Source of the DNA: Candidatus Bathyarchaeota archaeon RBG_16_48_13
Lineage (GTDB): Archaea; Thermoproteota; Bathyarchaeia; RBG-16-48-13
Length of the DNA stretch: 18,638 bases
Direction: 5' to 3'
NCBI GenBank assembly: GCA_001775995.1
Contig: MEZH01000004.1
Location: 21,642-40,279 of the forward strand
Below the pieces are notes generated by a model. That model saw nothing but the letters and a program-made list of their open reading frames with translations. It was not told where the DNA came from and did not search any database. A program made the translations under genes and the position numbers. Positions 358 to 11,029 of this stretch are shown piece after piece; positions within the stretch are counted from its first letter, which is position 1, and every line of letters starts with the position of its first letter.

Positions 358-645
358 TCACGGGAAGACCAGCTCAACGGATATCGCCTTTCTCTTCTGG
401 AAGTGCCATATCTCGGCTTTGGCGTTGAAAGCTTGCGCCCATTCTCTAAGAACCTGACGATCTGCTTCCTTGACCCTAGCCTTGCCGCTCTTTATTTGGA
501 TTAGAACTGTCTGAGCGCCTTTTCCTGCGAATATGTCTATTGGCGAGTGACTCGCAGCAGACCTCTGAGCGAGCCAACCCTCTTCTCGAAGCTTTATCAG
601 GGCTTTGTATTCGTATGCTCTGCCTCTGGCGTATTGCCTGTTCAT
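358..645 (-). CDS. Small Hjc-like (Holliday junction resolvase family) PD-(D/E)xK nuclease, 95 aa
   Basis: MNRQYARGRAYEYKAL..LREEGWLAQRSAASHSPIDIFA...VLIQIKSG follows the Hjc pattern G..E...L...G..V.RSA.S...D..A...(E/Q)xK. Start reassigned to ATG 645; the extension to 828 is low-quality sequence covering the intergenic promoter. Confidence 0.78.
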   Translation of the reverse strand: MNRQYARGRAYEYKALIKLREEGWLAQRSAASHSPIDIFAGKGAQTVLIQIKSGKARVKEADRQVLREWAQAFNAKAEIWHFQKRKAISVELVFP

Positions 646-728
646 GCTGAACACTGTCCTAAGAGAGATTGCTGAAGGATAAAAGAATATTCGAAGAATC
701 CTAGGCGAATCGAATAAACAAGAATGCC

Positions 729-742
729 AATTAATATATAGT
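729..742. promoter_or_regulatory. AT-rich TATA-like element in the divergent hjc-like/RACo intergenic region
   Basis: AATTAATATATAGT is the most AT-rich stretch between the divergent starts at 645 and 830 and can read as a TATA box on either strand. Confidence 0.4.
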
Positions 743-829
743 AAGGTCAGACATTTCACAAGAAAGGCGGCGTAAGAGGCGGACCTCCGCATATTCTGAG
801 ATAATACGTAGAGTTGTGTGATAGTCACA

Positions 830-2725
830 ATGGATAAGGCGAAAGTGCTTTTTCAGCCCGATGGCAAACGGAGTGAAGGCCAACCTGGAGAGAGCATCCT
901 TCATCTGGCTCAGAGGATGGGTCTGGATTTGAATTCCCTTTGCGGGGGGCTGGGCGTCTGCAAGAAATGCTTGATCGTGATCAAAGAAGGTGGATCCATT
1001 CTGTCGCCACTCACGGATACAGAAGCGAGATTCTTCTCTGAGGGAGAAGTGTCGGAGGGCTACAGATTGGCTTGTCGAACGTCCATCCTCCGCACAGGCG
1101 ACATAGTTGTTGAGATCCCATTTGAGAGCAGAACTGGCCAGATGAAGCTTCTGGCATCGGGTATTGAAGCTAAGGTCTCTCTGAATCCAGCTGTGAGGAA
1201 GGCGCTTGTCCAGCTGAGGAAGCCAACACTCAAGAATATCGAGGCTGATGCAGAGAATCTCCTGGCAACCATCAAAGAGAAATATGGGATTCGATTTGGC
1301 AGCCTCTCCTACGAGGTCTTAAAACGGCTGCCCGCAGCCCTCAGGGAAGGAAACTGGAATGTTTCCATCACAATACGCCAGGATGAAGAGGTCATTGCTG
1401 TCGAACCAAATGATACGACGGCTAGACTCTTCGGTTTCGCTGTTGATGTCGGAACCACGAAGCTCGCGGGGTATTTAGTTGATCTCTCGAAAGGGAAAGT
1501 TGTGGCGTCCGCGTCCATGATAAACCCGCAGGTACCTTACGGCGACGACATATTGTCGCGGATCACCTACACAAACAGCAATCCGGATGGGCTCAACAAG
1601 TTGGCTTCAACGGTTCGCGAGGGCATTATGAAACTCATAGGAGATTGCTGCGCGGAAGCAGGGGTAGAAAAGGAGGAGGTCTACGATGTCGTAGCTGTCG
1701 GAAATACGGCCATGCATCACATCCTTTTCGGGATCGACCCCGAGTACGTAGCGTTGGCACCTCACCCAGCAGCCATAAGGTCGTCATTAAACGTAAAAGC
1801 ACGCGAGATCGGTTTGAGGATCAGCGAAGGAGCATACGCGTATTCTCTGCCTCTGGTGGCAGGCTTCGTAGGTTCTGATGCGGTCGCCGACGGAATGGCC
1901 ACGGAGATACACATGAGCGAGGAGGTAGCCATGATGATAGACATTGGAACCAATACAGAAATCGTTTTGGGAAGTAAATACGGACTTGGTGCTTGCTCGT
2001 GTGCCTCTGGTCCAGCCTTTGAAGGTGCCCGCATAAAGAACGGCATGAGAGCAGCAACTGGTGCCATCGAGTCTATCTGGATTGAGCCTGATCTTAGGAT
2101 TCGCTACAAGACCATTGACTCCGCTGCGCCCAGGGGGATCTGTGGATCAGCCATGGTGGATGCCTTGGCGGAATTCCTGGTAAATGGCCTGATAGATAAC
2201 ACAGGAAAGATCAGAGTCGAGAAAGGACACCCCCAAGTGAGAAGGACAGACAATCTGTCCGAGGTAGTAATTGCCGAAAAGGGGGAGACGGTCGGTGGAG
2301 AGGAAATTACCGTAACTCAGGCTGACATTCGAGAGATTCAGCTGGCTAAAGCCGCCATATACACTGGGGCTTCAATCCTCATGAAGAACATGAGAATATT
2401 GCCGGAGGAGCTAAAGAGAATCTTCATAGCAGGCGCTTTCGGGAATTATGTCAACCCTGAGAACGCCAGGATAATTGGAATGTATCCGGATATAGCTTTG
2501 AGCAAAGTGAGATTTGTCGGCAACTCTGCTGGATCAGGGGCTAGGATGGCCCTCCTCTCCTACGACATACGCAGGATGGCTGAGATCGTCGCGAACAAGA
2601 TATCATACGTTGAACTCGCGGCAGATCCATCATTCAACAAGGAATTCATAAAAGCGATGTATCTACCACACGAGGAAGAGAAGCGTTTCAAAAACGTTAT
2701 GAAACTTCTGAGGAATGCGACCTAG
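830..2725 (+). CDS. ASKHA-domain ATP-dependent reductive activator of corrinoid proteins (RACo/AcsV/DUF4445 family) with N-terminal [2Fe-2S] ferredoxin domain
   Basis: N-terminal CGGLGVCKKC (CX5CX2C) plus RLAC supply the [2Fe-2S] ligands. ASKHA motifs VDVGTTK, IDIGTNTEI, GPAFEG, GICGS and AGAFGNY are present. Start is ATG 830 or GTG 818. Confidence 0.92.
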   Translation: MDKAKVLFQPDGKRSEGQPGESILHLAQRMGLDLNSLCGGLGVCKKCLIVIKEGGSILSPLTDTEARFFSEGEVSEGYRLACRTSILRTGDIVVEIPFESRTGQMKLLASGIEAKVSLNPAVRKALVQLRKPTLKNIEADAENLLATIKEKYGIRFGSLSYEVLKRLPAALREGNWNVSITIRQDEEVIAVEPNDTTARLFGFAVDVGTTKLAGYLVDLSKGKVVASASMINPQVPYGDDILSRITYTNSNPDGLNKLASTVREGIMKLIGDCCAEAGVEKEEVYDVVAVGNTAMHHILFGIDPEYVALAPHPAAIRSSLNVKAREIGLRISEGAYAYSLPLVAGFVGSDAVADGMATEIHMSEEVAMMIDIGTNTEIVLGSKYGLGACSCASGPAFEGARIKNGMRAATGAIESIWIEPDLRIRYKTIDSAAPRGICGSAMVDALAEFLVNGLIDNTGKIRVEKGHPQVRRTDNLSEVVIAEKGETVGGEEITVTQADIREIQLAKAAIYTGASILMKNMRILPEELKRIFIAGAFGNYVNPENARIIGMYPDIALSKVRFVGNSAGSGARMALLSYDIRRMAEIVANKISYVELAADPSFNKEFIKAMYLPHEEEKRFKNVMKLLRNAT

Positions 2726-2734
2726 CGTAGATTT

Positions 2735-2921
2735 ATGACGGAGAGCAGCTCTGAACTGGAAGGATCAGTTGAGATTCACGACCAATAAGGACAAGGCCCA
2801 GAAGATTCATGAAAGAGTAGCGTCCAAGTCCGGTGCCTGTTCCGTGTGCAGCGAGTGGTGCGTCTTCAAGATTTTGGATGAGTACATGGAGAAAGAGGGA
2901 CCTCCGGAAAAATGCTTCTAA
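2735..2921 (+). pseudogene. thiC: Remnant of the C-terminal Fe-S domain of a ThiC/BzaAB/BzaF-family radical-SAM enzyme
   Basis: Frame 2742-2921 reads RAALNWKDQLRFTTNKDKAQKIHERVASKSGACSVCSEWCVFKILDEYMEKEGPPEKCF*, matching the archaeal ThiC C-terminus pattern AR..LDW..Q......KA.K.......ACS.C...C. In-frame TGA at 2736-2738, the ATG at 2735 is out of frame, and the rest of the gene is absent. Confidence 0.8.
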
Positions 2922-4046: not shown

Positions 4047-4838
4047 CTAGCTCTTTGGTTTTGTAAAGAAGTCGCTGATTTTGCTTCCTTCAGATCTCTT
4101 TAAGATCTCTGCGCATTTCTTGACGTTTATCCTCTTGTATTCGAGGTTCATCGAATCCAGAAGAGGTTTGATGCCTTTGCCGAGTTTCGGCGCAGCTATG
4201 ATCCCTCGGATTTTCGGGTTTGTCTTAGAGAGGGGTTCAACATAACCCCTAAGTTGGATGACCGCTTCCTTTCTTACGGTCCCCCTCTTTATCTCAATTA
4301 TTACGGGGTTTCCTTCTTCGTCGACCCCGAAGATGTCTATGAAGCCTGTAGGTTGCATCTTCTCATCGATTATGCACCTGAAGTTTTCTTCAATTAGAGA
4401 GGGGCGCAGCATAATTGACTTTTTGATGTCTTCTTCTGACACGTATAAGGAGAAGGCGCCCTTATCGACGAGATTCAGAATAGTGACGAGGCTCAACTCA
4501 TCGAAAAGAATCTCCAGGGTCTCTCGTGGTTGGGATCTTATCGCCCTTATCTTGAGGTCAATACCGCTGACGAGTTCCGTTTGGATGATGCAACCCGGAG
4601 GCTGCCAGTTCACTGGCTCGTAACCCGTCGACCGGTGAATTAGGATGGATCTGTCTGATTTTATCATGACAAGGCGCTCTCCCCAATCCAGTTTTGAGGA
4701 GGCGCGGCCTTCATAATCTACTCGACAGTTCCCGACTATGAGCAGAACGCTTTGCTTGGCAACAGCATTTTGGATTACGAAGAGAGAGTCCTTTGGTGTT
4801 AAGTTCGGGTAGACGAAGAAATTGGTTTTCTGCAGCAT
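4047..4838 (-). CDS. nucS: Endonuclease NucS/EndoMS (mismatch-specific)
   Basis: CRVDYEGRASSKL..GERLVMIKSD.SILIH...EPVNWQPPG N-domain; catalytic IDIFGVD...IIEIKR...AVIQLRGY. Confidence 0.96.
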   Translation of the reverse strand: MLQKTNFFVYPNLTPKDSLFVIQNAVAKQSVLLIVGNCRVDYEGRASSKLDWGERLVMIKSDRSILIHRSTGYEPVNWQPPGCIIQTELVSGIDLKIRAIRSQPRETLEILFDELSLVTILNLVDKGAFSLYVSEEDIKKSIMLRPSLIEENFRCIIDEKMQPTGFIDIFGVDEEGNPVIIEIKRGTVRKEAVIQLRGYVEPLSKTNPKIRGIIAAPKLGKGIKPLLDSMNLEYKRINVKKCAEILKRSEGSKISDFFTKPKS

Positions 4839-4995: not shown

Positions 4996-5274
4996 TTAAC
5001 GAGTGAGGGTTATTTCTATTGTCGAGACGGCTCGAGTTCCGCCTTCTTCCACCGGCATCTCCTCAGTACCCAATTGGATGTTGCTTACCTTCATGTTCTC
5101 CATGAATCTGCGGCGGGTTATCTCCGCAGTATCTACAGCGGTGGTAATGGCTTGACCTCTTGCCTTCAGAGTCACTTCCTTTGTGTTGGCCGTGTTGAAA
5201 CAGGTTATTACCGCCAGCACATAGCTCATCACGGGCTTCTTTCCTACGTAGACAATATTTGTTTCTTTAGACAT
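4996..5274 (-). CDS. albA: DNA/RNA-binding chromatin protein Alba
   Basis: [15 protein letters not shown]...[24 protein letters not shown]...VSTIEITL; AGGTGA SD upstream. Confidence 0.97.
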
Positions 5275-5519: not shown

Positions 5520-8105
5520 TCACCAACTCTTTGACTTTATCTGAGAGTAGCCTTTCTCATTTCTCACCAAGGTCATGTAGTGGTCTACATATTCGCTTAT
5601 GTCTTCGTGGGCAATGATGAATATTTGACGGAAAGTCTTCTTCATAGCATCCAGAACCTCGAAGAACCCTTTCCTTCGTTCCTCATCGCTGCTAGATATG
5701 CATTCATCCATTAAAAGGCTGTAGTAGTCAGCTTTGACCCTGGAATCCAAGATACTCGCGGTGAAGGCCAGTCGCAGAGCTATCAGAAACTGATCTTGAG
5801 TACCGCCACTGAATACCACTTGTTCCTTGTATCCTCCGGCTTCCGTGGAATGGGCTTGGAATTTGAGATCCTCAGATATCTGGAGATCGCTGTAGCGGCC
5901 ATCGGTTATTGTTGGCAGGATCTGATTGATGATATATCGCGCATATGGTATCACCTTATTCCTCAATTTCCTGCTGGTCTCACTGATCTCCATTCGAGTT
6001 CGATCAATCACAGCTTGATTGAGTTTGAGATCTTCAACCTTGATCGCCATCGCTGGATATGCATCATGGGATTTCTCTAGATGCTGAAGTTCCTGGCCAA
6101 GGGCGTTCATAGTCGATTGTCTCGAGACGTATTGATTTTTTAGGTCGTTGAAGGTCTTTGAAGCATTATCAGTCTCCATTTTCATCTGATCATGGACCGT
6201 CTCCACGTAAGCCAAGTTCTCTATGCCTTCCGGTTTGGTATTGAGTAGCTCTGTCAATTCTGCCTCTATTTCGATGATCTCTTTCAGAAGTTCTTTTGAC
6301 CTCTTGTCAGGTTGACCACGTTCTAAGTCATGAATTCTGTCTTCTTCATTCTTCTTGTTCGCGGACAGTCGGCTCTTCGCATCCTTCATGTCCTCAAATC
6401 GCTTGATCTGATTCCCGATGTCAGATTCGATTTCCACCTTCTTTCCCTCTTCATCTATTCGGCTCTGAAATAGATTGATTCTAGTTGAAGCAGCATCAAG
6501 AGCGTCTTTCAATTCGGTGAGTGCAACCTCGCTGTTTCTGCATAGTACCTTGAGTCCATCGAGAGAATCTTGTCCCGTTGTCTCATCAATTTTTGAGCGA
6601 AGAACACTCAATCTCTTTTCAATTTCCTGAGAAGAGCCAAAGCATGTCTTGTTCTTTAGACCATTGAGTTCGCTCTTGACCTCTTTGAGGCGTTCCTCAG
6701 TGGACACTATTTCACGAGCTCCTGCCTGAAGTGTCAGGTGTGTTGCCGAAAGCTTCTCCATCTTGAAATACCTCGCAAAGCAGTATGAACTGAGCGCTAA
6801 ACAGGCAATTGCGGGAAGGAACATGAATATGAATAAAATGGCTGAGGAAGCTAGAAGCAATCCAGCTATCAGGGAGATTATCGAGGCCACCAAATATCGG
6901 CTCTTATTTGTTTGAAGTCTCGCGAAGTTCTGTGTGGAGTAACCTTTCAAGCCAATTCGGGTCATCTCGATAAGTTGAGATTTCTCCCTGGATTCGAGAT
7001 CCTTCGAAAGATCTTCAAGCTTCTCTTCAAGGTTCTTGTAGCTGTCCAAGTCTTCCGACAAATGAATGTATTCGGGTTCAATGGTCCTGAGCAAGTTCTG
7101 TTGTGTTTCGAGCCTTTTTTCGGCTTCTAATATTTTTCTCTTCAAGTCGATCTTATCTTGGCGGGTATTTTCCAAGTCCTCGAAGCTTTGGGAGATCTTC
7201 CTAAGGGCTCCAAGCTTATCTTCAATCCCTTCGTACTCCTTCAGTTGATGGGCTAGTTCCCCTAACCTCTTGCGACTTTTCGCTAGGGCATCAATTTCTT
7301 CATCAATCCTTTCTTTCAATTTCATTTTCTCGTGAAGCAATTCTTCTTTGGTTTTGATCTTTCCCAACCAGTCGAACTTCCAAAGGACCGCCTTCTTCAT
7401 TTCGATTTCTTCCGAGGCGAGATCCAGCTTGCCCTTGAGCTCACTGGTCTCTCTTTCGAGCTGTATCATTCTAGTCTGCTTTTCTTCGTAGAGTTCCCTT
7501 TCTCGCCTGACATTGTTGAATTCGATCCAAATTCGCTCATATTCTTCGCGAACCGCTTTCAATTTTCCTTGAAGAGCTTCGTCAGCCTTGTCAAAGGCCT
7601 CCATGCCCATGACCTTGTTGACTAGTTGCTCTCTGGAGCTCTTCTCGAGTTTCCTTAAGACGTCTAGGTCCTTTTGCCTCACATAAACGAGACGAGTGAA
7701 TGAGTCCCGATCCATTCCTGTTATCCGGTCTATCTCTTCACCGATCTTGGTCAGATTTGTCATAGAAGAACTTCTTGCGCCATCTCTAATCTGGTTCAGT
7801 CTCGCTCTATGACCGGTTCGCAGACCGATCTCTCGCTCCAAGATGTATCGCTCCGTTCCCGACGTGAACTCGAGTTTCAGTTTAGCGCTTTCTTTCCCCC
7901 ATGTTATGACGTCTTCGCGACTCGCCTCCTCGGCACTCTTTCCTTTCCTTAAGCCGTATAGAGCGTATTCCATGCTCTCAAGGAGTGTTGATTTCCCGCT
8001 CTCATTACCGCCGAACAGTCCTATCTTGCCCTCATCGGGGAACTCTAGCGTGATAGAGTCTCCAATCATCTTGAAGCCCGAAACAGATAACCGGTGGATG
8101 ATCAC
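5520..8105 (-). CDS. Rad50/SbcC-like SMC ATPase of YhaN/SbcE type, with a central hydrophobic segment and no zinc hook
   Basis: Walker A GGNESGKST, Q-loop YVRQKD, signature FSGGTQDQFLIALRLA, Walker B LLMDE, H-loop IIAHED, long coiled coils. Residues about 404-447 are hydrophobic. The GTG start overlaps the upstream stop (GTGA). Confidence 0.9.
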   Translation of the reverse strand: MIIHRLSVSGFKMIGDSITLEFPDEGKIGLFGGNESGKSTLLESMEYALYGLRKGKSAEEASREDVITWGKESAKLKLEFTSGTERYILEREIGLRTGHRARLNQIRDGARSSSMTNLTKIGEEIDRITGMDRDSFTRLVYVRQKDLDVLRKLEKSSREQLVNKVMGMEAFDKADEALQGKLKAVREEYERIWIEFNNVRRERELYEEKQTRMIQLERETSELKGKLDLASEEIEMKKAVLWKFDWLGKIKTKEELLHEKMKLKERIDEEIDALAKSRKRLGELAHQLKEYEGIEDKLGALRKISQSFEDLENTRQDKIDLKRKILEAEKRLETQQNLLRTIEPEYIHLSEDLDSYKNLEEKLEDLSKDLESREKSQLIEMTRIGLKGYSTQNFARLQTNKSRYLVASIISLIAGLLLASSAILFIFMFLPAIACLALSSYCFARYFKMEKLSATHLTLQAGAREIVSTEERLKEVKSELNGLKNKTCFGSSQEIEKRLSVLRSKIDETTGQDSLDGLKVLCRNSEVALTELKDALDAASTRINLFQSRIDEEGKKVEIESDIGNQIKRFEDMKDAKSRLSANKKNEEDRIHDLERGQPDKRSKELLKEIIEIEAELTELLNTKPEGIENLAYVETVHDQMKMETDNASKTFNDLKNQYVSRQSTMNALGQELQHLEKSHDAYPAMAIKVEDLKLNQAVIDRTRMEISETSRKLRNKVIPYARYIINQILPTITDGRYSDLQISEDLKFQAHSTEAGGYKEQVVFSGGTQDQFLIALRLAFTASILDSRVKADYYSLLMDECISSSDEERRKGFFEVLDAMKKTFRQIFIIAHEDISEYVDHYMTLVRNEKGYSQIKSKSW

Positions 8106-9274
8106 GTGCTCTCCTCCAAGTATTCCTTTCCAAGATCCTTCACCTTTTCGAGAAGTCTCCGTTCATCCTCGGTCTCGGCGCTGGCTATGAGATCATCAAG
8201 GTGCCTCTCGAAGGCCTGCTTGGGTGTACCGATTCTCTCGAAGAATATTCGGCCATACTCTTCTACGATAAGGTCCGTTCTGTCTAGGCTGAAGTGAAAG
8301 AAGAGATTCTGGGCAATTCGGTAGAGGTCGACTATCCTGAACTGATTATATTGGGCTTGAGATATGCCGCCTTTGAGGACCAGTCGAATTATAGCTTCTT
8401 GATCCTTGTATTGGCCGAGGAATGTGGGGATAAAATCGTTGAGGTTCCCACTTTCTTTTGTGACTGACAAATCCAGCGATTGCATATTTCTGGTCTTCAG
8501 AGGGATGTGTTCCCATCTAACCTTGGATCCTTCTAGCTCTATCCAAAGAAACCCTTTCTTGTCGTTGAGTTCGTTCCACGTCAGCCGTTCAATGGAGCCC
8601 GGGTTCCCGATAAGGCACCCTCTATGCTCCCTAACAAAGGAGTTGTGGAAATGACCTAGAGCGAGATAGGTCAGGCCCTTAACAACATCATCAGCATACA
8701 CAGGGCTCTGATTGATGTAATCTGGAACGGAGGAAACGACACCCAGTCCGCGAAAAGCTGCGTGGAGCAAGAGAATGTTGTAATCTCCGTCAAGCGGAAT
8801 CTTCTCTCCCTTTAGAGGATCTGTTGATTCATCCTGAGTGTTGTAGGATTTCCCCGAGAGGCAGACCGTAGCACCGTTTACCTCTACAACGTCCTGTTGC
8901 AGGGTATCTGACTTGTGGAAAACTCTTGCGAGACCTGCTGACTCGAAGTTCTCTATTGCCAAATGGGTATATTTGCCAATCTTCGGGACATCATGGTTTC
9001 CACCAATCATGAAAATACGGATACCAGCATCATGAAGTCTTCGGATATTTTCCATGAGGAAGACGCTGGTAGCGTTGGTTGGGGTTACCCGGTCATACGA
9101 GTCGCCAGTTATGAGAAATAGATCTGCCTTCCTATCTATTGCGGAGTCGACGACGGTGGAGAAATTCCTGTTCAGATCATTCTTTCTATCCATAGCCAAG
9201 GCAAAGTTGGATATGTTGAAGGTTCTATCTAGGTGAAGGTCGCTGCAATGGACTATTTTGACGGTATTGCTCAT
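8102..9274 (-). CDS. Mre11/SbcD/YhaO-like metallophosphoesterase DNA nuclease
   Basis: All five phosphoesterase motifs present: SDLHLD, GDSYD, GGNHD, LLHAA, LGHFH, plus NPGSIERL. Capping domain and C-terminal helical SMC-binding region. Start reassigned to ATG 9274 (MSNTVKIVH). Confidence 0.93.
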   Translation of the reverse strand: MSNTVKIVHCSDLHLDRTFNISNFALAMDRKNDLNRNFSTVVDSAIDRKADLFLITGDSYDRVTPTNATSVFLMENIRRLHDAGIRIFMIGGNHDVPKIGKYTHLAIENFESAGLARVFHKSDTLQQDVVEVNGATVCLSGKSYNTQDESTDPLKGEKIPLDGDYNILLLHAAFRGLGVVSSVPDYINQSPVYADDVVKGLTYLALGHFHNSFVREHRGCLIGNPGSIERLTWNELNDKKGFLWIELEGSKVRWEHIPLKTRNMQSLDLSVTKESGNLNDFIPTFLGQYKDQEAIIRLVLKGGISQAQYNQFRIVDLYRIAQNLFFHFSLDRTDLIVEEYGRIFFERIGTPKQAFERHLDDLIASAETEDERRLLEKVKDLGKEYLEEST

Positions 9275-9355
9275 GCTTGACCTACCCCGGATGTTCCCCC
9301 GCACAATTCTCAAGTTATGCTTCTCAGAGCCTCATCGATAATGTGTAATCGATCC

Positions 9356-11029
9356 TCAAATCGACTTTTCGGTTGGTCCTTGCCATACTATGATGCCGCC
9401 TTCTAGGCTTTTCACGTCTTTAAAGCTCATTCTCTCCTTGAGGAAGCGCGCTGCATGATAGCTCGTTATCCCATACTTACATATTGTTATTACTTCTTTT
9501 TCTCGATCGAGTTCATTACTTCTTTTCCAAAGCTCGTTTAGCGGTATGTTTGTGGATTTGGGGATGTGACATTCCTTGTAGAGCTTGGGTTGGAGCACGT
9601 CCACCAGTTGAAGATCTTCTCCTCGCATCATTCTTTGGAGGAGATCTTTTCCGTTAATGGACACGTATGCGCCTTTGAGTTTGTTGAGGGCGACGTTCCC
9701 AGCGGTTATTATCGAGTCAAGTGCGGGACTATAGGGTGGAGCGTAAGCCAGATCAAGTTTGGAGAGATCATCGCATGTCATTTTCTTATAGAGCGCCGTG
9801 GCCATAACATCTATACGTTTGTCCACTCCGCGCTCTCCCACAATCTGACAACCTAGGAGCCTGTGGTCGGGTCTATTGACCATGGTCTTCATGGTGATGA
9901 TTCTAGCGCCCGGGTAGTATTGGGGGTGATCCCAAGAGTTGGTGAAGGTGACCTCAATATCGAAGTCAAGCTTCCTAGCTTCGATTTCGCTTAGACCGGC
10001 TTTGGCCACTGAAAGATCAAAGAGTCGGGCAATTTGGACGGGTGCTACTCCTCCAAATTCTACTTCTCCTCCAGCGGCATTCTCCCCAGCTACTCGTCCC
10101 TGCTTGTTGGCTGTAGAACCGAGAGGGGCCCATATCGGTCGACCCGTCACAAAGTCGACAGTCTCAACGCAATCGCCAGCAGCCAGAATATTTGGATCAC
10201 AGGTATACATCTTCGAATTAACTCTGATAGCTCCTGTTTCGCCTATCTCCAACCCGGCTTCCCTTGCCAAGGTGACCTCAGGCTTCACGCCAATTGAGAT
10301 TATTGCAAGGCCAGCCGCGATCTTTCTTTTGTCAGTCTCCACATATGATATGCTCCCTTTGGCGTCTTCATCGAAGGCTCTAACGGATTCGCCCAGAAAG
10401 AATTTGATACTTTTATTCTTCAAGTACTTCTCTACCAGAAAGGCCATGTCGTCATCCAAGATGGGTAGAATCTGCTCCAGTTTCTCGACGATTGAGACGT
10501 CCAGTCCAGAGATTAAGAGGCTCTCAGCCATTTCGAGACCTATGAGACCAGCCCCAACTATCACCGCTTTCCTTGGTTTCCGTTCAGATATGAAGTCCCT
10601 AAGATTGGAACCGTCTTCCATGGATTTTATAGTAAATACTCCGCGAGAAGAAGCGCCCTCGATTGGGAGTTTTATCGGGTTTGCCCCAGTCGCGATAAGG
10701 AGTTTCCTGTATGTTACATGGAGAATGCAATCTGTGGAAAGGTCGCGAACCACCAATTTTCTCGCTTTTCTGTTTATTCCTTCGACCCTATGATTGACCT
10801 TCACATCTAAGTCCAGAAACTCCTTGAACCAGTCTGGAGAACGGACTATGAGCTCGTCTGAATCCTCTATCAAGCCTGAAATGTAATATGGTAGGCCGCA
10901 CCCAGCGAAGGAAACGTAGTCACCTTTCTCAAAAACAGTTATCTGGAGGTTGGGATTACATCTCCTCGCCCGAGCCGCAGCCTTCATTCCTGAGGCGTTT
11001 CCACCAATGATCACGAATTCGGACTCCAT
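9356..11029 (-). CDS. CoA-disulfide/persulfide reductase (NADH oxidase family) with C-terminal rhodanese domain
   Basis: IIGGNASG FAD motif, active site SFAGCGLPYY, NAD motif GAGLIGLEMAE, AAGDC, LDLAYAPPYS, rhodanese HIP...NIP...ICKYG. Start reassigned to ATG 11029 with GAGG SD; the extension to 11275 overlaps the divergent promoter and PPOX gene. Confidence 0.92.
   Translation of the reverse strand: MESEFVIIGGNASGMKAAARARRCNPNLQITVFEKGDYVSFAGCGLPYYISGLIEDSDELIVRSPDWFKEFLDLDVKVNHRVEGINRKARKLVVRDLSTDCILHVTYRKLLIATGANPIKLPIEGASSRGVFTIKSMEDGSNLRDFISERKPRKAVIVGAGLIGLEMAESLLISGLDVSIVEKLEQILPILDDDMAFLVEKYLKNKSIKFFLGESVRAFDEDAKGSISYVETDKRKIAAGLAIISIGVKPEVTLAREAGLEIGETGAIRVNSKMYTCDPNILAAGDCVETVDFVTGRPIWAPLGSTANKQGRVAGENAAGGEVEFGGVAPVQIARLFDLSVAKAGLSEIEARKLDFDIEVTFTNSWDHPQYYPGARIITMKTMVNRPDHRLLGCQIVGERGVDKRIDVMATALYKKMTCDDLSKLDLAYAPPYSPALDSIITAGNVALNKLKGAYVSINGKDLLQRMMRGEDLQLVDVLQPKLYKECHIPKSTNIPLNELWKRSNELDREKEVITICKYGITSYHAARFLKERMSFKDVKSLEGGIIVWQGPTEKSI

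Follow-up and report, generated by a model that had tools for sequence, protein, structure and literature searches.

The zinc hook is commonly taken to be universal in Rad50 and essential to it. The window analyzed here, i.e., the whole stretch of 18,638 nucleotides from a Bathyarchaeia genome, carries adjacent genes for an Mre11-like and a Rad50-like protein, and the latter has no such hook. The locus raises the question of what occupies the apex of this Rad50, and where in the cell a complex built on it would act. A sequence-only reading had proposed a membrane-tethered SMC protein that could act in DNA uptake, anti-plasmid or antiviral surveillance, or repair at the membrane, and we examined both parts of that proposal.

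The identity of the two proteins was established from family matches, structural models and motifs. The rad50-like frame runs open for 861 codons, and conserved ATPase motifs flank its central hydrophobic segment. The protein matched the Pfam model AAA_23 (5.7e-16, 60 bits versus a cut-off of 27), and its top NCBIfam matches were archaeal Rad50 models, every one scoring well under its cut-off: the Rad50 equivalogs gave 41-104 bits against cut-offs of 700-1087, the highest being NF003034 with 103.5 bits against 700. The PDB sequence matches were Rad50 heads (5f3w, 8.6e-21; 3aux; 3qf7), and the top Foldseek match of the AF2 model (mean pLDDT 86) was the Rad50 of 7zr1. Together with a Q-loop (Q144) conserved among 64 relatives, the motifs listed in Table 1 make up the split ABC ATPase head of the Rad50/SbcC superfamily (Walker A, Q-loop, signature, Walker B, D-loop, H-loop); the protein is a Rad50/SbcC-type ATPase with intact catalytic motifs.

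The co-oriented Mre11/SbcD gene that accompanies members of this superfamily is adjacent as well, its stop codon overlapping the rad50 start by 4 nt. Its product matched Pfam Metallophos (4.7e-13) and, under the cut-off, NCBIfam Mre11_Sulfo (2.7e-28), and contains all five Mre11 motifs: I, DLH (D25/H27); II, GD (70); III, GNHD (105); IV, LLLH (181); and V, GHFH (220). A homologue of this gene lies directly upstream of the hairpin-bearing Rad50 gene in 67 of the 67 loci with enough upstream DNA. The initial description of the locus as a Rad50-like SMC without CXXC and an Mre11-like partner is borne out by the Rad50 family matches, the missing CxxC and Mre11 motifs I-V.

Table 1. Features of the rad50-like gene, its product and neighboring genes (window coordinates; residue numbers refer to the 861-aa protein; conservation in the 64-sequence alignment).
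Feature	Coordinates	Strand	Details
Rad50/SbcC-superfamily ATPase, hookless, with apical hydrophobic hairpin	5520..8105	minus	861 aa, GTG start
Walker A GGNESGKS, residues 32-39	7989..8012	minus	G32, G37, K38 invariant
Extra block, outgoing arm, residues 303-353	7047..7199	minus	missing from 749-752-aa forms; paired with 525-586
Apical hydrophobic hairpin, residues 404-444	6774..6896	minus	41 aa uncharged, at protein midpoint
Hairpin helix 1, residues ~404-422	6840-6896	minus	AF2
Hairpin turn, residues 423-425		minus	AF2
Hairpin helix 2, residues ~426-444	6774-6830	minus	AF2
Extra block, returning arm, residues 525-586	6348..6533	minus	missing from 749-752-aa forms; paired with 303-353
ABC signature SGG, residues 766-768	5802..5810	minus	S766 invariant, G767/G768 nearly so
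Walker B LLMDE, residues 797-801, then D-loop SSSD	5703..5717	minus	D800, E801, S805, S806, D807 at least 90% conserved
H-loop AHE, H833	5604..5612	minus	H833 at least 90% conserved
Mre11/SbcD-like phosphoesterase	8102..9274	minus	390 aa; ATG 9274, open frame up to TTG 9313
Alba chromatin protein	4996..5274	minus	next gene downstream; Pfam Alba 1.4e-18; context, link to the system not implied
Endonuclease NucS	4047..4838	minus	NCBIfam NF003270, 242 bits vs cut-off 216; context

No CxxC occurs anywhere in the 861-aa protein (its cysteines are at 435, 442, 488, 522 and 802), which thus lacks the zinc hook of canonical Rad50. In the AF2 model, helices 169-422 and 426-733 fold back on each other at 423-425 to form the long antiparallel intramolecular coiled coil typical of the superfamily; at its apex, helix 391-422, the turn and helix 426-487 follow one another, and the hairpin is modelled with pLDDT of 89-93. 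Compared to the shorter forms, the two antiparallel strands are lengthened in step by the paired extra blocks, so that the hairpin stays at the apex. Self-BLAST detected no internal repeats in the coiled-coil arms.

The peptide singled out by the sequence-only reading matches residues 404-447 (6765-6896, minus strand) letter by letter; its estimate of about 40 uncharged residues becomes 41 (404-444), with basic borders formed by K401 and R403 before the segment, and R445 and K448 after it. The Kyte-Doolittle maximum in a 19-residue window was 2.63, a value reached once when the protein was shuffled 2000 times; values above 1.6 were confined to windows within residues 402-444. The helical hydrophobic moment of the hairpin was 0.52, compared to 0.95 for coiled-coil windows; such a low moment suggests that the hairpin helices are uniformly hydrophobic rather than amphipathic. 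The hairpin was kept in 64 of 64 aligned relatives (core of 34-50 aa, mean 41), and the border residue was K or R on the N side in 62 and on the C side in 61 of the 64. The 8-aa flanks contained, on average, 3.0 and 2.4 K/R residues versus a background of 1.3, and 0.6 and 0.9 D/E residues versus 1.4; these charges read as the positive-inside pattern on both sides. The sequence of the core is weakly conserved while its hydrophobicity is retained; the hairpin contains P431, and relatives often have P or N halfway along it.

A pair of hydrophobic helices, each of at least about 19 residues, with a short turn between them and a positive-inside pattern in the flanks, carries the sequence hallmarks of a membrane anchor. 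On these grounds, the apical hairpin is most likely inserted in the membrane with both of its ends cytoplasmic, and the Mre11-Rad50 nuclease is probably tied to the cell membrane through it. With a turn of about three residues, which in the 861-aa protein includes no polar residue, a monotopic (half-membrane) hairpin and a fully spanning one look alike. The idea of a membrane-tethered SMC, therefore, stands as far as a conserved two-helix apical hairpin with membrane-anchor hallmarks is concerned, and its membrane insertion is still a prediction.

We then asked how widespread the hairpin is. All 120 homologues listed (734-1010 aa) lacked CxxC and contained a hydrophobic segment of 34-50 aa, placed at 0.46-0.50 of the protein length. 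The same segment was found in all but three of the full-length proteins (at least 560 aa) among the 150 best representatives at 50% identity (580-1311 aa), and the hairpin-bearing representatives came from Bathyarchaeia, Asgard archaea, Thermofilaceae and some bacteria. When only the ATPase heads were used for a tree, computed by a quick method and with several long branches, 39 hairpin proteins were on one side of a branch with SH-aLRT support of 96, and 13 hook-bearing Rad50s, including 10 from the order or class to which the window belongs, were outside. The hairpin side took in proteins of bacterial MAGs (Chloroflexota, Caldisericota and one named 'SMC family ATPase [bacterium]'). As judged from the alignments and this tree, the hairpin is the defining trait of a very large, barely studied clade and is not peculiar to a Bathyarchaeia gene; the homologues correct the initial picture of an oddity of one protein.

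The closest studied relative is SbcE (YhaN) of B. subtilis, the parallel that had been drawn in the sequence-only reading and that agrees with the published description: SbcE has no CxxC, its central domain is hydrophobic and insoluble and contains a conserved proline, it binds the nuclease SbcF (YhaO), and it acts in double-strand break repair and in transformation (Krishnamurthy et al. 2009/2010, Nucleic Acids Res 38:455, PMC2811018). Shared by SbcE and the 861-aa protein are a Rad50/SbcC-like ABC ATPase, long heptad arms, a hydrophobic center that lacks CxxC and includes a proline (on the SbcE side by that description) and an adjacent gene for an Mre11/SbcD-like nuclease. The YhaN model PF13514 (AAA_27) scored 18.4 bits on the 861-aa protein, under the gathering threshold of 22; some relatives passed it (two at 23.8 and one at 26.7 bits, nine representatives scanned), and the protein-language-model neighbors of the 861-aa protein were Atlas clusters with PF13514 in 63-98% of members. 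The differences are that the 861-aa protein is archaeal, that the operon partners of its relatives are NurA and HerA and not YhaM, and that Bacillus also keeps SbcCD, whereas the hairpin Rad50 is apparently the sole Rad50 of its genome. The hairpin Mre11-Rad50 is best read as an archaeal counterpart of Bacillus SbcE/SbcF (YhaN/YhaO).

Two further systems should be compared. Canonical archaeal Rad50-Mre11, encoded in the herA-mre11-rad50-nurA operon (Pyrococcus furiosus, Methanocaldococcus jannaschii, Sulfolobus; PDB 5f3w, 3aux, 3qku), provides the heads that are the top sequence and structure matches, and has Mre11 and the NurA/HerA partners in common with the hairpin type, whose relatives have an operon of the same kind. 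It differs at the apex, where the hairpin type has no CxxC hook, and the hairpin protein is apart on the head tree from the hook Rad50s of its own class. Arcadin-4 (Rkd4) of the crenactin cluster of Thermoproteales is likewise a Rad50-like ATPase and its model NF053563 matched the 861-aa protein (7.3e-18); however, it reached 64 bits where the cut-off is 860. In Infirmifilum, the protein of arcadin-4 type has retained CxxC, adjoins an actin gene, has no Mre11 partner and falls outside the hairpin clade. Literature searches returned no description of a membrane-anchored Rad50, archaeal or otherwise, in agreement with the earlier statement that no characterized archaeal example was known.

A search of this genome, which is 75% complete, yielded no Rad50 with a hook; one could lie in the missing part. 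The second Rad50 candidate was an SMC-like gene split over the ends of two contigs (C6 and C8) with a gene for an Nse4-like kleisin next to it, and was rejected as a Rad50. None was found in five other hairpin-bearing genomes either, where the AAA_23 matches were taken and each ORF was inspected; the sole other CxxC protein in these genomes was of the actin-linked arcadin-4 type, and a CxxC protein of 802-804 aa in Thermofilaceae, considered as a hook Rad50, was assigned to that type as it adjoins actin. The zinc-hook model PF04423 gave only sub-threshold noise in the five genomes, responded in just 8 of 14 control genomes and was dropped. Among 40 relatives of the class, 11 had the hook type and 2 the hairpin type (three hairpin genomes including this one), and the two types were together in none of the 41 genomes.

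The reading that we consider likely is that this complex is the lineage's own Mre11-Rad50, with its apex tethered to the membrane, doing ordinary DNA-end processing. The gene pair (9274-5520, minus strand) codes for a nuclease of Mre11 type and for an ABC ATPase of the Rad50 family, whose antiparallel coiled coil ends in the two ~19-residue hydrophobic helices with their tight turn rather than in a zinc hook. The hairpin would be embedded in the cytoplasmic membrane with its two ends facing the cytoplasm, and the ATPase-nuclease head would reach into the cell at the tip of an arm ~235-290 residues long, which would measure some 35 nm when fully extended. From this tethered position, the complex would use ATP to recognise DNA ends and process them with its nuclease, in partnership with a NurA/HerA resection pair whose genes lie at another place on this contig; hairpins associating sideways within the membrane would probably take over the pairing of apices from the hook.

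An alternative on function, which we consider rather unlikely, is that the membrane-anchored complex deals specifically with DNA at the envelope (uptake and exchange, or destruction of plasmid or viral DNA) and not for general double-strand break repair. A membrane tether would place the nuclease at the entry site of foreign DNA; besides contributing to transformation, SbcE gathers at the poles of competent B. subtilis cells (PMC2811018), and rad50 and herA-like genes adjoin the Ted DNA-import system in some Thermoproteales (PMC9905601). A superfamily-level PADLOC match to LmuB (51 bits) points in the same direction, but the PADLOC matches are generic SMC/ABC ones, weaker than those to Rad50, and a reading as a defense system was dropped on that account. 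The neighbors of the pair are housekeeping genes (Alba, NucS, a CoA-disulfide reductase-like protein, CTP synthase and fibrillarin), i.e., neither a defense island nor a DNA-uptake locus. The partners are standard NurA and HerA: NurA-HerA-Mre11-Rad50(hairpin) operons were found in 25-33 of 80 loci of relatives, the genes are ordered Mre11-Rad50-NurA-HerA in one member of the 862-aa subfamily to which the Rad50 of the window belongs, and in this genome a NurA-like/HerA-like pair, 34% and 32% identical to that member's NurA and HerA, lies ~73 kb off on the same contig. The apparent lack of a hook-bearing Rad50 here, and the separation of the two types across the 41 genomes of the class, also argue against a specialised complex. 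The operons of relatives, the genome's own NurA/HerA pair, the Alba and NucS neighbors, and the fact that no sampled relative has both types favor the ordinary end-resection role; the context speaks against a special surveillance device, one of the roles considered in the sequence-only reading.

A second alternative, on structure, is that the hairpins stay outside the membrane and, contributed by two or more apices, form a soluble bundle of hydrophobic helices, a dimerisation device replacing the zinc hook. The hairpin is exactly at the position of the hook, the job of which is apex-apex pairing; the two AF2 helices are regular and continuous with the coiled coil; and the center of SbcE is reported only as hydrophobic and insoluble, not as membrane-bound (PMC2811018). 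However, each of the 64 aligned members contains 34-50 consecutive uncharged residues, the low hydrophobic moment leaves no polar face for the surface of a bundle, and K/R collars stand at both borders. Moreover, a core that drifts freely while its hydrophobicity stays is typical of lipid-facing helices and not of a specific protein interface. Taken together, these observations make a soluble bundle improbable.

That the segment is a functionless chance stretch, or an artefact of annotation or frame, is contradicted by its conservation and has a negligible probability: the 861-codon frame is open with ATPase motifs on either side, the position and character of the segment are kept in hundreds of proteins of 580-1311 aa, and so few shuffles reach its hydrophobicity.

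We return to the membrane-tethered complex in ordinary DNA-end processing and to its meaning for these organisms. There is a whole clade of Mre11-Rad50 complexes without a zinc hook, with a membrane-type hairpin instead, and such a complex apparently includes the only Rad50 in this genome. A broader proposition, which we hold plausible but rate slightly below an even chance, is that in Bathyarchaeia such as this one, in Thermofilaceae and in several Asgard lineages, the sole Mre11-Rad50 is permanently membrane-tethered, an ancient hairpin clade shared with SbcE/YhaN having replaced the zinc hook. If so, DNA ends would be processed at the cell envelope, and apices would be paired by hairpins in lipid. 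Should the hairpin indeed lie in the membrane, hairpin-bearing archaea, Asgard lineages included, would organise the repair of breaks or the processing of ends at the envelope. This is relevant to how the arms of Rad50 work and how its apices pair, as well as to a possible connection of repair with DNA exchange; the question of membrane binding concerns well over a thousand protein clusters, of which SbcE is the only studied relative.

We examined the hydrophobic mid-protein segment of P0001, the 861-aa hookless Rad50-like protein of the window, and the observation stands. The sequence-only reading had placed the segment at nucleotides 6765-6896; these code for residues 404-447, and the peptide given for them is exact. 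Residues 404-444 are free of D, E, K, R, H, N, and Q, basic residues flank the run as had been described (K401 and R403 before it, R445 and K448 after it), and the protein indeed lacks any CxxC, the motif of the canonical zinc hook. The hydrophobicity peak (19-residue Kyte-Doolittle) is 2.63, a value matched by 1 of 2000 shuffles of the same protein, and windows above 1.6 are confined to residues 402-444. The AlphaFold2 model, based on a 64-sequence alignment, shows a hairpin composed of a helix (391-422), a turn (423-425), and a second helix (426-487), with pLDDT of 89-93 across the hairpin and a mean of 86 for the whole model.

P0001 matches the Pfam models AAA_23 (5.7e-16), SMC_N, and SbcC_Walker_B; its top NCBIfam matches are archaeal Rad50 equivalogs at 41-104 bits, below their cut-offs of 700-1087. 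The top PDB sequence matches are Rad50 heads from M. jannaschii, T. maritima, and P. furiosus, and the top Foldseek match of the model is Rad50 of the C. thermophilum MRN complex. The Walker A, Q-loop, signature, Walker B, D-loop, and H-loop motifs are all found and conserved. The adjoining phosphoesterase gene overlaps rad50 by 4 nt. Also encoded in the window are fibrillarin, Nop5, NucS, and Alba. The host belongs to Bathyarchaeia as a divergent member: many proteins bearing the name Bathyarchaeota or Bathyarchaeia share 70-72% identity with its CTP synthase.

Coordinates of the features discussed (window positions, unless a genome and contig are named; G000 is the window's own genome)
Feature	Position	Strand	Remarks
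rad50-like gene, 861 residues	5520-8105	-	open reading frame
Mre11/SbcD-like calcineurin-like phosphoesterase	8102-9274 (frame open to 9313)		directly upstream of rad50; motifs I-V
Hjc-like resolvase domain protein	358-828	-	DNA-transaction gene around the cassette
NucS	4047-4838	-	DNA-transaction gene around the cassette
Alba	4996-5274	-	DNA-transaction gene around the cassette; directly downstream of rad50, same strand
DUF460 protein, 680 aa	12123-14165	-	long C-terminal coiled-coil-like region; no NCBIfam match
NurA-like (380 aa) and HerA-like (480 aa) pair	G000:C4:111372-113940 (L144 3373-5941)		same contig, ~73 kb from the cassette
Split SMC-like gene	G000:C6:13641-14921 and G000:C8:2-2302 (L025, L026)		two contig ends; third such gene; next come an Nse4_C-like kleisin (267 aa) and a 201-aa gene
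138-aa ORF of a same-order relative	L027 (G013:C1:543689-546964) 1363-2780		74% identical to residues 770-861 of P0001
802-aa Rad50-like protein of Infirmifilum	L139 (G041:C49:96000-111000) 5986-10592		mid-protein CxxC; two genes from an actin-family gene

The hairpin had been reported from this one protein; it is real and is not a one-off, since all 120 homologues listed (734-1010 aa) lack a CxxC and have a hydrophobic segment located at 0.46-0.50 of the protein length. Searched exhaustively with HMMER, a set of 1.84 billion cluster representatives yielded 1762 matches at E <=1e-10. Among the best 150 of these, the full-length members (>=560 aa; actual span 580-1311 aa) are hookless with a central hydrophobic segment, apart from three, ranked near the bottom of the list, that have a mid-protein CxxC in its place. 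In the 64-sequence alignment the uncharged core spans 34-50 aa (mean 41), with K or R bordering it on the N side in 62 and on the C side in 61 of the 64 sequences. K/R number 3.0 and 2.4 in the 8-residue flanks, versus a background of 1.3, and D/E 0.6 and 0.9, versus 1.4. For the core helices, the helical hydrophobic moment is roughly half the value in coiled-coil windows, and the core sequence is scarcely conserved, whereas many residues in the heads are invariant. Lipid-embedded helices with both ends cytoplasmic, rather than a specific soluble interface, fit the evenly spread hydrophobicity, the ~19-residue length of the two helices, the minimal turn, the two-sided basic collars, and the free sequence drift. 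We infer that the hairpin of P0001 inserts into the membrane: it is a genuine, deeply conserved feature whose most likely role, predicted from these properties, is that of a membrane anchor.

The tree rests on 309 columns from the two halves of the head, with the hairpin and the arms left out (IQ-TREE quick search, LG+C20). All 39 hairpin proteins, bacterial MAG proteins among them, fall on one side of a branch (SH-aLRT 96), and all 13 hook-bearing proteins, ten of them from the order or class of the window's host, fall outside it. Head HMM scores tell the same story: the hairpin type scores 86-248 bits for the N half and 97-220 bits for the C half, and the hook type of the same order or class 61-93 and 23-43 bits. 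Therefore, the hairpin was not gained recently in this lineage through loss of the hook, and the P0001 gene sits in a branch of the Rad50/SbcC family that is old and distinct. Within it, 12 archaeal members form a subclade (support 98) that includes P0001, forms of 749-752, 862, and 1010 aa, and a Heimdallarchaeota protein. Compared to the 749-752-aa forms, it has extra blocks at 303-353 (outgoing arm) and 525-586 (returning arm), a matched elongation of the two strands, which is what an antiparallel coiled coil demands.

Scanning one genome per prokaryotic species, we found 80 loci with a hairpin Rad50, in Bathyarchaeia, Asgard lineages (Hermod-, Heimdall-, Odin-, Thor-, and Promethearchaeota), Thermofilaceae, a few Thermoplasmata and DPANN, as well as in certain bacterial MAGs. 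Wherever a locus has sufficient upstream DNA (67 loci), the gene immediately upstream of rad50 is Mre11-like and co-oriented with it, and clustering of flanking ORFs recovered HerA (Pfam DUF87) in 33 and NurA in 25 of the 80. Two gene orders result, NurA-HerA-Mre11-Rad50 and Mre11-Rad50-NurA-HerA; the second is that of the window's own subclade and also appears in the precomputed annotation around P0006, an 862-aa relative of the same subfamily. NurA and HerA genes are absent beside rad50 within the window, and a NurA-like/HerA-like pair is found elsewhere on the contig, 34% (E 3e-41) and 32% identical, respectively, to the NurA and HerA of locus L032, where NurA comes after the hairpin Rad50. 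This divergent NurA-like protein scores 14.8 bits on the Pfam NurA model, under its threshold, and is missed by that model alone. L032 itself (JANKMU010000024.1) is labelled 'Tenericutes bacterium', and in the head tree its hairpin Rad50 is nested among archaeal members; this label may reflect an error of binning or of naming.

In G000 (849 kb, 75% complete), the other SMC-like genes number two, and both were rejected as a second Rad50: one codes for a 1193-aa SMC, and the other is the split gene followed by an Nse4-like kleisin. The same trio, an SMC-like gene (641-976 aa) and then genes of ~260 and ~200 aa, also occurs in two Bathyarchaeia and one Hermodarchaeum genome. Five further genomes with a hairpin Rad50 come from Thermofilaceae (two), Hermodarchaeum (one), and Bathyarchaeia (two); their other AAA_23 proteins are SMC and the same kleisin-linked SMC-like protein, to which the Thermofilaceae add a CxxC protein. 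In the one Thermofilaceae case inspected, Infirmifilum, this protein, the only hook-bearing Rad50-like one found in that genome, adjoins actin and is thus of the arcadin-4 type (arcadin-4/crenactin arrangement). A hook-bearing Rad50 (~700-820 aa) is present in 11, and the hairpin type in two, of 40 relatives from the same order or class. In one relative, G013 (a single 1.19-Mb contig, 66% complete), the hairpin Rad50 is reduced to a 138-aa C-terminal remnant immediately ahead of a NurA-domain gene, with no Mre11 and no remaining rad50 upstream; the pair looks decayed. Hook and hairpin occur together in none of the 40 relatives or G000, many of these genomes being incomplete, and the distribution fits replacement rather than addition.

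The nearest described system is Bacillus subtilis SbcE (YhaN) with SbcF (YhaO). SbcE resembles SbcC without the CxxC; its unique central domain has a hydrophobic first half and a conserved proline and is insoluble upon expression; the Mre11-like SbcF is its interaction partner; and SbcE has a part in double-strand break repair and transformation, collecting at the poles of competent cells (PMC2811018). The parallel to YhaN/SbcE that had been drawn is thus borne out, the term "membrane protein" not being applied to SbcE in that paper. Protein-language-model neighbours of P0001 fall in clusters with PF13514, the YhaN model, in 63-98% of members; P0001, itself under the threshold of that model, would work like SbcE and belong to the same hairpin-bearing branch. 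A membrane-anchored Rad50, archaeal or other, is not described in the literature searched, in agreement with the earlier statement that no characterised archaeal example was known. In some Thermoproteales, the Ted DNA-import system has rad50 and herA-like genes as neighbours (PMC9905601), and a tie between hairpin Rad50 and DNA exchange is possible.

The gene pair of the window is most likely the working Mre11-Rad50 of its host archaeon, and P0001 is a new archaeal case of a known, barely studied sort of protein. The wider implication, absent from the literature searched, is that a hookless, membrane-tethered Mre11-Rad50 would be the sole form in several archaeal lineages, an idea that is easy to test.
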